Assembly: GCA_014905635.1 (NCBI GenBank) | Contig: JABVCE010000004.1 | Span: 372,001 to 436,000, forward strand | Reading direction: 5' to 3' | DNA: 64,000 nt | DNA from: Scenedesmus sp. PABB004 | Taxonomy: Eukaryota | Part shown: in pieces, positions 26,272-29,070 of the stretch | How the letters are laid out: each line of letters starts with the position of its first letter | Numbering within the stretch: the stretch's first letter is position 1 | Notes under the pieces: generated by a model | The model's input: the letters and a program-made list of their open reading frames with translations, nothing else | Database searches by the model: none | Told to the model about the DNA's origin: nothing | Translations under genes and position numbers: made by a program

Positions 26272-29070
26272 ATGCTGCCGGCGGCCCTCGTGCGCGGCTG
26301 GCGGGCCTGCGCTCCCCGCGCGCTGGCAGCGTCGCGGCAGCCCCTCGCGACCAGCGCGGCGCCGCGCAGCAGGTGCGCCCGCGCGCGCGGCGGCGGAGGC
26401 CGCGGCGGCGCGCAGCGCGCTGCTCGGCCGCGGCCGCCCGACGCCGCGCGGCTCGCCCGCAGGGCCTACCCCGACGAGCCGCGCGTGGGGGTCGGTGTGG
26501 TCGTGTTCAGGCGCCCCCCGCAGCAGGGGCAGTCGCCCGAGGTGCTGCTCGTGCGGCGGGCCAAGGAGCCGGCAAAGGGGCAGTGGTGCTTCCCGGGCGG
26601 CAGCCTGGAGCTGGGTGAGCGCCGGCTGCTGAGAGCGGCAGGGCGCGGCCGCCAGCGACCAGCGGCCGCAGCCCGGCGCGGCCGGCGCGGACGGCCGGCC
26701 GCCGCCCGCCGCGCCGCAGGCGAGTCGCTCGCGGCCTGCGCGGCGCGGGAGGTGCTGGAGGAGACGGGCGTGGCGCTGCGGCACGCGGCGGGCGGGGCGG
26801 CGGCGTACGAGGGCTTCAGCAAGTCCCTCGCCGTGCCGACGCCCTTTGCCGCCGTGGACTCGATCGTGCCGGACGCCGACGGGGCGCTGAGGTTTCACTA
26901 CGTCGTCGTGGAGGTGCGGCCGCGTTTGCTTCGTCGTGTCTGGTTGTTTACGTGTTGATTTGGCGGTTTGTTTGTGTGTTCCTTTGACTGTTTGCGCTGC
27001 TGGGTGGCTGCGCGGCCTTTCCGCGACGACCGCGGCGGCGGCGGCCGCACGAGCTAGCAGCCCCAGCGTTGCCGCGGACCGGTCACACGGTCGGCGACAG
27101 GCGGTCAGCGGCGCCCGTCAGACGGCCGCCGCCTCGCTCGCGCGGCAGGGGGCCGCGCCGTCGGAGCTGCCGGAGCTCGACTCGCGCCGCGCCGCTTGCG
27201 CCGCTTCCGCGGCGCGCCGCGCCTTGGTGGCGCGCATGCGCACGGCAGCGGCCGCCGCGTCGGCGCGCACGCGCGACACGGCCGCGGCCGCCGCGCCGTC
27301 GCCGCCGCGCCAGCGCCGGTCGACGCTGCCCATCGCAGCCACAAAGCCGCCGTCGGGCGTGCGCAGGGCTGGGGAGGTCATGAAGCCGCCCGGGCCCCCG
27401 CCACGGCTGTACCAGAGGTCCTCCTCGAACAGCGCCGCGTCCTCGGCCGCCCAGCCAATGAACGGGCAGTGCACGCACGGCCGCCGCAGCACGGAGCGCT
27501 GCGCGCGCCGGAGGTGCTTGGCCGCCGGCGCCAGCAAGGGCGTGGGCTCCGCCAGCGCCGCCTGGTACATGGCGGGCCCCCGCCACACGCCGCTCAGCGA
27601 CAGCGCCACGCCAGCGGCGCTGGCGGCGCTGGCGGCGTTGGCGTCGCTGCCGCTGCTGCAGCTGCCCGCGCCGGCCCACGCGGCGCTGCTGGCGCGGCTG
27701 GCGCGGCTGGCGGAGAGCGGCGCGCCGGGCGCGGGCAGCAGCCGGCACCGCGCCCCCGCGCCGGCGGCCGCCTGCGCCGCCTCTGCAGCCGTGGCGGGGT
27801 CGGGGTGGTGTTCGGCCGCGAAATCCGCCCACGACACAGAGAGAGCCTCGCGGCACAGCGTCGTGCTGTGGCTGCGGCGCACAGGGCGCCGCGCGGCCGC
27901 CGCGCCGCACGCCGCGCCGCACGTTGCGCCGCCCCAGGTGCAGGCCGCGCTGCCGCCGCCGGGCGTCGGCGGCGTGCGGGCGCGGAAGGACGCCGCGCGC
28001 GACTGCGCGGCCGACGTGGCGGCGCTGCTGGGCCCGCTGTGCTCCCACGCGTCGCGCGCCATGCAGACGGCAGGCAGGAAGTCGCGGCACGGCGGCCGCC
28101 CCGGGCTCGCGCTGCCGCTGGTGGGAGTGCCGCCGGCGCTCGGGCTGGCCGGCTGGCTGCGGGGCTTGGCGTCCTGCGAGCAGCACGGCAGCGTGCGTCC
28201 GATGCCGCGCGCGATGCGCGATGCGCCGCGCGCGGCGGCGGGGCGATTGCCCGCCACAGCGCTGCAGCGCCAGCCAGGGCCAGGGGCAGCGGAGGCGCGC
28301 CCTGGCCAGGGCTGGCAGCGGCAGCCCGTGGCTGCAGGCGCCGGGGCCAGCCTTGCCGCTCACGTTGCGAGCGCCGGCGAGTAGCACCAGCGCCACGACG
28401 CCGTCGTCCTGGGGCTGTTCGTGAGCCTGGGACTCCTGCGACTCGCCCCGGCTGCGGCGCGCGGCCCAGCGCTGCAGGGACGCGCTGAGCGCGGCAAAAT
28501 AGCGCGCCATTTCCGTCCCCGACTCCCCGCGCAGTGCGCGCGGGCGGCTCCGCGGCCGGGGGTGGGACGTGGGCATGAAGCCCGGTCTGGGCGGGAGCTC
28601 GGGCCTGCGTCAAGTGCCGCCGGCGCCCGCGGCGCAGGGCGCAGCGCCCGGCCGCGGCGCTGCTGCGCGACGCGGCCCCGCGGAGCCCTCGCTGGCGGCT
28701 GTGGAACACACGGACGCGGTCGGACCCCAGCCCCGGGACCGCTGGCAGCGTTCCTGCCCTCAGTCCGCGCCGCGCGCGGCGCAGGTGGCCGCGATGGCGG
28801 CCGACCCCGACGCGGAGCCCGCGGCTGCGGACGACGTCGACGGCGTGCAGTGGCTGCCGGTGGCAGCGCTGCGCAGCTTGCCGAGTGAGCGAGGGCGGCA
28901 GCGCCCCCTGGGCGTCGGCTGCTTTGCGCGCGCGCCGGGGGCGCGCGGCGGCGCTCACACGCACGTGCGCGCCCGCGCCCCGCGCGCGGCCGGCGCCTGC
29001 CGCAGACCTGACCAAGAACTGCGCGCGCCTGGCAGAGGAAGCGTGCGAGCGCTTTGACCTGTCTGGCTAG
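26272..29070 (+). CDS. NUDIX hydrolase, organelle-targeted, with a 1.87-kb intron (26914-28784) and duplicated terminal exons
   Basis: PRVGVGVVV, Nudix box GGSLELG|ESLAACAAREVLEETG, HYVVVE| joined in phase 0 to VAAMAADP...DDVDGVQWLPV (28785-28884) and last exon 29006-29070. Confidence 0.85.
27118..28510 (-). CDS. Hypothetical 400-aa protein nested antisense within the NUDIX intron
   Basis: ATG 28510; exon 28510-28364; GTGAG donor and CTCGCAG acceptor (intron 28363-28174, phase 0); exon 28173-27118 with the complex block RRPCVHCPFIGWAAEDAALFEEDLWYSR. Confidence 0.6.

Follow-up and report, generated by a model that had tools for sequence, protein, structure and literature searches.

The third intron of a NUDIX hydrolase gene spans 1,871 nt and encloses, on the opposite strand, a two-exon open reading frame (ORF) with the composition of coding sequence. 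We interpret this ORF, with moderate confidence, as a real lineage-restricted (orphan) gene of 400 or 422 aa nested antisense in an ancient NUDIX intron. The size of the host intron would then be explained by the presence of a complete opposite-strand gene inside it.

The host gene and its long intron

The window, that is, the whole stretch of DNA analyzed here (64,000 nt), is nuclear DNA of a green alga with a GC content of ~78%. The NUDIX gene and its long intron are organized as follows.

26272..26372, plus strand: NUDIX exon 1, ATG at 26272; its ...APRSR|AYPDEP junction agrees with orthologues and the joined model is in frame
26463..26614, plus strand: NUDIX exon 2, where the Nudix fold begins; carries the first half of the Nudix box; Pfam PF00293; aligned to 8 orthologues
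26720..26913, plus strand: NUDIX exon 3, ending in ...HYVVVE, donor GTGCGG; aligned to orthologues
26914..28784, plus strand: NUDIX intron 3 (host intron), 1,871 nt, phase 0, GTGCGG...GCGCAG
28785..28884, plus strand: NUDIX exon 4 (copy a); 22 identities over 31 residues with Tetradesmus obliquus 142-172
29006..29070, plus strand: NUDIX exon 5 (copy a), ending with TAG (29068-29070); 16 identities over 18 residues with T. obliquus 175-192

Joined in frame, the five exons encode a 203-aa protein that shares 77% identity with the T. obliquus orthologue (P0001) over 175 residues with one gap. Each exon was scanned singly against Pfam, without joining; exon 2 alone matched PF00293 at 30.3 bits (cut-off of 21.1, E=4.7e-7), which assigns the gene to this family, and exon 3 alone scored 19.8 bits, under the 21.1 cut-off. 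The Nudix box has the consensus Gx5Ex7REUxEExGU. In the host gene the box is complete (GGSLELG|ESLAACAAREVLEETGV) and spans the exon 2/3 junction, and all nine rows of an alignment (A2) agree in its G, E, R-E and E-E columns. Alignment with the orthologues further reveals that the fold is complete, its C-terminal strand and helix being encoded 3′ of the long intron, and that the RLAEEA spacing of exon 5 copy a is the one found in all eight orthologues.

An earlier note on this DNA reported that the NUDIX frame breaks at HYVVVE|GTGCG and resumes at CAG|VAAMAADP. The sequence agrees, with the break at 26913, the resumption at 28785 and a gap of 1,871 nt, and the unspliced frame does read through to a stop, TGA 26956-26958 (ORF 26002..26958). 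In the orthologue, the stretches matched by exons 4 and 5 (residues 142-172 and 175-192) come immediately after the one matched by exon 3, and no residue is lost at the junction. Because the five-exon join gives an orthologue-like protein that is contiguous at this point, we infer that 26914-28784 is a phase-0 intron; this contiguity and the conserved position of the intron suggest that it is a genuine intron, spliced out of a complete NUDIX gene.

The description of the other introns as short holds for the NUDIX gene itself, whose remaining three introns measure 90, 105 and 121 nt. Relatives were compared as proposed at the outset: at the four green-algal loci where the homologous intron could be delimited, its length is 110 (L027), 161 (L021), 223 (L014) and 725 nt (L023), with canonical GT..AG ends at the same phase-0 position. 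None of these four introns displays coding periodicity at p<0.01. The idea that a gene was inserted into the intron fits these shorter, non-periodic homologues, but the gene itself finds no support in homologue, domain or fold. Regarding transposable elements, no inverted or direct repeats flank the insert, which therefore does not qualify as one; no transposase, reverse transcriptase or integrase domain was found by Pfam (E<=0.1) in the nested ORF or in seven long ORFs, on both strands, and no further copy of the nested ORF exists within the 64-kb window. An intron-hosted small RNA, such as a snoRNA, was rejected as a candidate, as Rfam returned no match at E<=1 on either strand of 25800-30000.

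Anatomy of the nested open reading frame

The features on the minus strand are listed in order of transcription.

28364..28576, minus strand: nested exon 1, ATG at 28576 and second ATG at 28510; GC at codon positions 1/2/3 of 0.77/0.61/0.89
28174..28363, minus strand: proposed nested intron, 190 nt, GTGAGC...TCGCAG, consensus sites
27118..28173, minus strand: nested exon 2, 351 codons plus TGA at 27118-27120; GC at codon positions 1/2/3 of 0.73/0.76/0.95; contains RPCVHCPFIGW
26914..27117, minus strand: 3′ flank separating the nested stop from NUDIX exon 3, presumably the nested 3′ UTR; GC 0.67, against 0.86-0.91 in the three short NUDIX introns

The nested coding sequence (27118-28576) lies wholly within the intron (26914-28784), which is one property expected of a nested intronic gene. 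As first described, the two exons encode 400 aa from the second ATG (MARYF...) with no internal stop; translation from the first ATG (28576) would yield 422 aa, also free of internal stops. The better context is that of ATG 28510 (GGAA|ATGGCG). The internal intron, bounded by 28363 and 28174, is predicted on consensus sites. Its donor is the single minus-strand instance of GT[GA][AC]G in 28050-28620, and its acceptor at 28174 is, out of four downstream acceptors, the one that continues the GC3-rich frame, at the point where the GC3 phase switches. We do not count an in-frame acceptor as strong evidence, given that about one-third of acceptors are in frame by chance and one in four fits here. 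Furthermore, the phase of exon 1 remains the GC-richest down to ~28260, within the proposed intron, so a frameshift instead of an intron is possible.

The predicted protein is basic and mainly of low complexity, with a high content of Ala, Ser, Arg, Gly and Pro; a C-terminal segment, around RPCVHCPFIGW...DLWYSRGGGPGGF, is more ordinary. The CxxC block pointed out previously is indeed present in exon 2 as RPCVHCPFIGW, but consists of a single CxxC. Judging by composition, one could guess that the protein is disordered and possibly organelle-targeted, its N-terminus being rich in Arg, Ala and Ser. The poly(A) signal TGTAA is absent from 26000-30000 (nine occurrences in the whole window versus 3.7 expected) and hence cannot mark the end of either the NUDIX or the nested gene.

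Searches for relatives of the nested protein

The homology search recommended for the nested protein failed to bring out a homologue in any protein search. Exhaustive phmmer found no match at E<=0.001 among 1,835,955,588 representatives. Word-indexed searches found none among 8,000 scored candidates for exon 2, for which Ala-rich words may have crowded the candidates, and none among 581 candidates for exon 1 (longer lengths). The databases searched include annotated proteomes of related algae (Tetradesmus and Monoraphidium), in which the nested protein is likewise unmatched. No chain among PDB sequences matched at E<=1, the ESM Atlas contained no usable match to residues 190-300, and of the 598 metagenome-contig pattern matches, not one was confirmed. 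Pfam assigned no family to the nested ORF or to the seven other long-frame proteins of the region, on both strands. At 57 metagenome NUDIX loci, the flanking genes of the window and the nested protein were unmatched, save for an unrelated hydrolase match in L013. A single-sequence AlphaFold2 model reached a mean pLDDT of 44.6 (under 50 for 261 of its 351 residues) and is too poor to justify a fold search.

An ORF without relatives could be a relic, i.e., a gene or gene fragment that a local rearrangement copied or moved into the intron and that is now a non-working pseudogene with its coding composition retained, possibly frameshifted near 28230-28260 instead of spliced. The surroundings make such an origin conceivable, for they contain partial-gene duplications (of the NUDIX 3′ end at 98% and, as an inverted 678-bp piece, of an alpha/beta-hydrolase at 93%), and neither minus frame has a stop in 28174-28359, where a single indel would join them; the absence of a homologue and the weak codon bias of exon 2 are also compatible with decay. 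We nevertheless consider it unlikely, as 422 codons persist without a stop and with an undecayed GC3 of 0.95, and no second copy lies within the 64-kb window. Moreover, GC at codon positions 1 and 2 has stayed clearly lower than in the three short NUDIX introns (0.86-0.91), as expected under protein constraint.

Coding signal of the nested open reading frame

A 6-kb region contains 68 ORFs, counted from stop to stop, that reach 50 aa or more; they occupy all six frames, and ORF length alone is meaningless in this genome. GC periodicity, on the other hand, greatly exceeds chance in exon 2 (chi-square of 62.1, p=3.2e-14) and is significant in exon 1 in its own frame (p=4.4e-4), while none of the flanks, NUDIX introns or spacer is periodic at p<0.01, including the 3′ flank at 26914..27117 (p=0.63). 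The GC-rich phase (0.88-0.98) does not change in any of the 150-nt windows between 27200 and 28249, and GC3 in exon 2 is 0.95, a value typical of real genes here, versus 0.78 genome-wide. Over the 64-kb window, the frame indicated by periodicity is open in 96 of 105 periodic 300-nt windows, compared with 214 of 420 for other frames and 286 of 648 for the frames of non-periodic windows. Periodicity thus tracks open frames window-wide and marks coding sequence in this DNA. Of the six tandem-repeat rows within the nested coding sequence, five have periods of 9, 9, 12, 36 and 36, a further point in favour of the gene.

These data bear on the possibility that there is no gene at all, and that a chance open frame in 78%-GC DNA owes its period of three to in-frame simple repeats. 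Arrays of period 9, 12 and 36 do lie within the region and could imitate a codon rhythm; long ORFs also fill every frame, and neither a homologue nor a confident fold is at hand. However, the arrays span just ~200 of 1,053 nt and the GC-rich phase is uniform throughout, a signal that the surrounding known non-coding stretches lack and that follows open frames elsewhere in the window, which leaves this explanation very improbable.

Strand of the coding signal

A codon model favours the minus strand in both exons, by +0.264 log-likelihood per codon in exon 1 (~+19 in total) and weakly, by +0.044 per codon (~+15 in total), in exon 2. All eight confirmed genes used as reference fall within 0.136-0.354 per codon, a range that includes exon 1 and lies above exon 2. 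Strand windows of the nested ORF (n=14) average 0.061 with 4 negative, versus 0.202 (sd 0.194) with 9 negative for known genes (n=65), and the C-terminal windows at 27459-27220 reach +0.2 per codon for minus. The minus strand is supported as the best reading of this coding-like, two-exon ORF predicted within the intron.

The opposite reading, a same-sense single-exon ORF in the plus frame 26891..28384 that would start, for example, from an ATG near 27236, draws on the fact that this frame is open for 497 codons and has its third positions in common with the minus ORF, on the 4 of 14 windows that are slightly plus-like and on GC2 exceeding GC1 on the minus reading over ~27650-28250. We find it highly improbable in view of the total log-likelihoods of both exons and of the C-terminal windows, all in favour of minus, and of the lack of a Pfam family for the plus frame. 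In addition, the plus frame in the exon-1 phase meets a stop at 28422-28424, hence the plus strand cannot account for the periodicity at 28425-28576.

Duplication of the NUDIX 3′ end

Exons 4 and 5 of the NUDIX gene exist in two copies that are 98% identical, the second being located 632 nt downstream, which had gone unnoticed in the earlier note.

29403..29765, plus strand: NUDIX 3′ end, copy b; exon 4b at 29417-29516, exon 5b at 29638-29699, and ~60 nt past the stop

The 121-nt intron between exons 4b and 5b is identical to that of copy a, and a spacer of 270 nt of unique sequence separates the copies. The model ending in copy b is in frame and encodes 202 aa, copy b being one codon shorter in the C-terminal helix. 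The duplicated terminal exons consequently provide a second possible host junction, 26913^29417. The duplicate segments are 98% (D1), 96% (D5) and 93% (D7) identical. Also in this neighbourhood, a 678-bp piece of the 3′ end of an alpha/beta-hydrolase gene is repeated in inverted orientation at 93%.

An assembly artefact, with a misjoin or two tandem haplotypes behind the intron length or the exon doubling, could suit copies that differ by ~2% including a 3-nt indel, as alleles might, but we give it very little credence since the stretch is free of N, the intron is bounded by proper GT..AG ends at a conserved position between intact exons, the 270-nt spacer is unique, and a self-consistent gene is not expected from a misjoin.

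Discussion

We favour a model in which an ancient phase-0 intron after ...HYVVVE, short in other algal loci, gained an orphan gene in this lineage. The nested promoter would be located within or adjoining the 208 nt upstream of the nested ATG, and the transcript would be spliced at 28363/28174 and then translated. Host and nested gene would form convergent transcription units that may interfere or overlap. Only 204 nt separate the nested stop from NUDIX exon 3, so the nested 3′ UTR may extend antisense into this exon; overlapping antisense transcription at the NUDIX locus, as initially proposed, is conjectural. More tentatively still, and with a probability that we regard as low, a young orphan gene might have been born in, or captured into, an intron predating the chlorophycean-trebouxiophycean split, the same rearrangement having doubled the terminal exons of the host. 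If so, the locus would be a natural case of convergent, overlapping transcription units in which the host has alternative 3′ ends, in a genome that ranks among the most GC-rich of eukaryotes; long open frames readily appear in such DNA and might serve as raw material for new genes.

The nested gene, if real, would be a clean example of a lineage-restricted gene in a compact algal genome, housed by an intron that is otherwise old and short, and the short form of the intron in relatives would make the insertion datable given sister genomes. For the annotation of genomes with extreme GC, the locus also teaches that ORF length has no value, since coinciding third positions keep both strands open, and that position-specific GC combined with splice signals can still separate genes from noise.

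The host resembles its green-algal orthologues (T. obliquus OEZ86_001160, the Monoraphidium protein named 'ADP-ribose pyrophosphatase' and C. reinhardtii CHLRE_07g336000v5, under their source names) in its complete Nudix box and in an intron position in common with other algae, and differs by its long intron 3 with the nested ORF and by its doubled terminal exon pair. An antisense gene nested in an intron is a well-known arrangement that will not surprise the specialist. According to one study, Drosophila 2mit sits in the 11th intron of tim2 in opposite orientation, and intronic genes constitute ~6% of D. melanogaster genes (PMC3786989). Nested genes of the 2mit/tim2 type and the one proposed here are alike in that the whole coding sequence, with its own splice sites, lies in one host intron on the other strand, and in that the host intron greatly exceeds neighbouring introns in length. 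Here, in contrast, the genome is that of a compact, very GC-rich green alga, the host intron measures 1.9 kb, and the putative nested gene has no homologue. A literature search by title yielded no paper on nested genes in green algae among the matches listed. Transcriptional interference between host and nested genes is a reported subject (PMC3192792); the convergent layout proposed here would permit such interference, intron retention or cryptic host polyadenylation.

Orphan ORFs without domain or orthologue belong to a class in which false models are common, according to passages of a Chlamydomonas study (PMC8226300), and the nested ORF shares with these low-coding-potential models its two-exon orphan structure in a GC-rich green alga and its lack of a domain or orthologue. 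The Chlamydomonas false models are described in the same passages as short (mean of 372 bp), lacking Kozak context and close to the genome average in GC3 (PMC8226300). The nested ORF departs from that description with its length of 1.2 kb, its GC3 of 0.95 versus 0.78 genome-wide and its favourable second ATG.

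NUDIX gene model and its third intron

Exon bounds of the NUDIX hydrolase gene were read off the sequence and then verified by script:

26272-26372, plus strand, NUDIX exon 1
26463-26614, plus strand, NUDIX exon 2
26720-26913, plus strand, NUDIX exon 3
28785-28884, plus strand, NUDIX exon 4
29006-29070, plus strand, NUDIX exon 5

Joined, the five exons make 612 nt encoding 203 aa without internal stops, and the introns between them (90, 105, 1,871 and 121 nt) all read GTG(A/C)G(C/G)...(C/G)CGCAG. The top orthologues come from the chlorophycean green algae Tetradesmus obliquus, Monoraphidium and Haematococcus, the T. 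obliquus protein (P0001) being 77% identical to the joined model over 175 residues with one gap. In a nine-row alignment, exon 3 ends at the orthologue motif FHY(V/A)(V/I)(V/I)E; exon 4 matches orthologue residues 142-172 (22/31 identical), which directly succeed the exon 3 part, and exon 5 matches residues 175-192 (16/18 identical). Since no residues are lost at the exon 3/4 junction, 26914-28784 is by this comparison a phase 0 intron, and the 1.87-kb frame gap described in an earlier note is very probably intronic; unspliced, the frame stops at the TGA 26956-26958, as that note had it. Intron 2 (26615-26719) is divisible by three and stop-free, so that exons 2-3 form a single ORF, 26002..26958, a possible trap for annotation that relies on ORFs.

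Scanning metagenome contigs with the orthologue alignment yielded 57 loci, and the motif [FY]HY..E was located by script in 24 of the 57, several of which are near-duplicates of each other.

Sequence following the motif in metagenome-contig loci
L003, L004, L005, L020, L022 (5): coding continuous past the motif, intron absent
L014, L021, L023, L027 (4): GT after the motif, next exon (VAA...) located downstream
L009-L012, L056 (5): GT after the motif, next exon not matched by the search pattern
L019, L024, L031, L033, L035-L038, L042, L043 (10): GCAAG(T/C) after the motif (Glu codon)

The GCAAG(T/C) loci, on algal contigs, suggest a GC-AG intron at the homologous site, where other lineages have GT-AG. 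In the four loci where it could be delimited, the homologous GT...AG intron measures 223, 161, 725 and 110 nt, respectively, the shortest being that of a 71% GC locus (L027), and none shows coding periodicity at p<0.01. Judged from these loci, the position of intron 3 is old and the intron usually short. The comparison with relatives called for previously thus sets 110-725 nt in four loci against 1,871 nt here, which makes intron 3 an expanded ancestral intron.

Duplication at the NUDIX 3′ end

NUDIX exons 4-5 are present in duplicate, together with the intron between them and some 60 nt of 3′ flank, at 28771-29133 (copy a) and 29403-29765 (copy b), 632 nt apart and about 98% identical (D1, 98% over 266 nt; D5, 96%; D7, 93%); the earlier note does not mention the second copy. 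The 270-nt unique spacer between them is not periodic at p<0.01 (p=0.083). It contains a perfect 20-nt inverted repeat (I17; 29165-29184 and 29283-29302, 98-nt loop). The 121-nt exon 4/5 intron is identical in both copies. Differences between the exons comprise two neighbouring substitutions, one of which turns Ala into Thr, a single synonymous substitution and a 3-nt (one-codon) deletion in copy b, whose joined model is in frame and encodes 202 aa. Because all eight orthologues examined have the undeleted spacing of copy a, and because copy a has the more pyrimidine-rich tract before its acceptor, junction 26913^28785 appears likelier than 26913^29417, which is possible. The second copy may represent an alternative 3′ end or one in decay, or else a duplication introduced during assembly. 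Nearby, the 3′ end of an alpha/beta-hydrolase gene with its downstream TGTAA (22082-22738) recurs as an inverted segmental duplication at 17266-16597; the two are 93% identical across 678 bp, and 86.5% identical across protein residues 226-328. The region around the NUDIX gene is rearrangement-prone.

The minus-strand ORF within intron 3

GC content is 72-83% in each 2-kb bin of the window, whose intron-bearing genes encode, among other products, a NUDIX hydrolase, a geranylgeranyl reductase, a multicopper oxidase and an alpha/beta hydrolase; the protein database contained no sequence identical to any protein encoded in the window. Open frames are ubiquitous in such DNA: 6 kb contain 68 stop-to-stop ORFs of 50 aa or longer, all six frames being represented. 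Pairs of very long ORFs without a Pfam family, one on each strand and with third positions in register, are found at 58020-61160 (+) / 58454-61159 (−), at 40572-43919 (+) / 40595-41824 (−) and elsewhere, a hazard for annotating this genome. A codon model trained on eight homology-supported stretches separated sense from third-position-sharing antisense frames in 8/8 leave-one-out trials (+0.136 to +0.354 per codon), and assigns the first pair to the minus strand and the second to the plus strand. The neighbourhood shows many orphan or low-complexity genes.

TGTAA, the green-algal poly(A) signal, occurs nine times in the window against 3.7 expected (at least nine in 3/100 shuffles), for example at:

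22127-22123, minus strand, TGTAA
33470-33474, plus strand, TGTAA
48515-48519, plus strand, TGTAA

Several of the nine are located a few hundred nt 3′ of ORF ends, a placement that fits this role; there is none within 26000-30000.

Within intron 3, a minus-strand frame starts at an ATG at 28576 or at a second one at 28510 in better context (GGAA|ATGGCG), and runs to the donor AAC|GTGAGC at 28363. From the acceptor TCGCAG|G at 28174 a different frame is open until a TGA stop codon (27118-27120). Depending on the ATG, the two exons encode 422 or 400 aa without internal stops, the shorter form reproducing the model proposed earlier. The 204 nt past the stop have a GC content of only 0.67, resembling the UTR/intergenic stretch 5′ of the NUDIX ATG and unlike the short NUDIX introns (0.86-0.91). 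Tandem arrays with periods of 36, 36, 14, 9, 9 and 12 lie within the coding sequence.

Both exons are periodic in their own frames (exon 1, p=4.4e-4; exon 2, p=3.2e-14). At p<0.01 there is no periodicity in the sequence on either side (p=0.63 and 0.13), in the putative internal intron (p=0.08) or in the short introns of the NUDIX gene (three; p=0.87, 0.039 and 0.44). As a control, 213 consecutive 300-nt windows across the 64 kb were scored at p<1e-3; 105 were periodic, and the indicated frame was open on at least one strand in 96 of these, so periodicity is a coding mark in this genome (other frames open, 214/420; frames of non-periodic windows, 286/648). GC at codon positions 1, 2 and 3 is 0.77/0.61/0.89 in exon 1 and 0.73/0.76/0.95 in exon 2, compared with about 0.8/0.5/0.96 in NUDIX exons; positions 1 and 2 fall below the GC of the short introns, as expected under protein constraint. 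The part of PMC8226300 bearing on false gene models in Chlamydomonas describes them as short, with GC3 near the genome mean and without Kozak context, and by that description the nested ORF looks like a gene rather than a false model.

A GC3-rich gene keeps open the antisense frame whose third positions coincide with its own, in this case plus 26891..28384 (497 codons). The codon model gives the minus strand +0.264 per codon in exon 1 and just +0.044 in exon 2. Over 50-codon windows, the nested gene averages 0.061 (4/14 negative) and known genes 0.202 (sd 0.194; 9/65 negative), its C-terminal windows being near +0.2 and its Ala/Ser/Gly-rich middle neutral. Strand-specific signals favour minus: only one consensus donor is present in 28050-28620, and the switch of the GC-rich phase falls at the in-frame acceptor. 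On the plus strand, the frame in the exon-1 phase is stopped at 28422-28424 and therefore cannot explain periodicity at 28425-28576. Nevertheless, an indel instead of an intron could join the two frames, given that one in-frame acceptor among the four downstream is not unusual, and that the exon-1 phase stays GC-richest to about 28260.

The homology search suggested for the nested protein returned no match, either word-indexed or as an exhaustive phmmer run against 1,835,955,588 representatives. Pfam gave no family for it or for a further seven long frames taken from both strands, ESM Atlas and PDB sequences no match, and metagenome contigs no confirmed match among 598 pattern matches. The single-sequence AlphaFold2 model has a mean pLDDT of 44.6. 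Exon 2 is rich in Ala (26.8%), Ser (11.7%), Arg (10.3%) and Gly (10.0%), and it has 11 Cys and a pI of 10.2; the window's confirmed proteins are Ala-rich as well (16-23.5%). The CxxC block singled out earlier is a lone CVHC, which does not indicate a metal site. The 64-kb window holds no second copy of the ORF, the locus has no Rfam match, and transposon hallmarks looked for there were not found.

Discussion

The sequence observations of the earlier note (host frame gap, read-through stop and 400-aa minus-strand ORF) were all recovered. Its interpretation holds in part, as regards a long intron at an ancient position containing an antisense ORF of coding type whose gene anatomy is self-consistent; the ORF itself is an orphan with no homologue. 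We lean towards a living orphan gene, predicted to lie antisense in NUDIX intron 3. A relic or captured fragment is unlikely, yet this reading stays viable in a rearrangement-prone region where partial-gene duplications (the NUDIX 3′ end and the inverted hydrolase 3′ end) lie nearby. What weight remains is shared by plus-strand coding, absence of a gene and an error in the assembly. Genes nested antisense in introns are a familiar arrangement (PMC3786989, PMC3192792), of which the nested ORF predicted here would be a further example.
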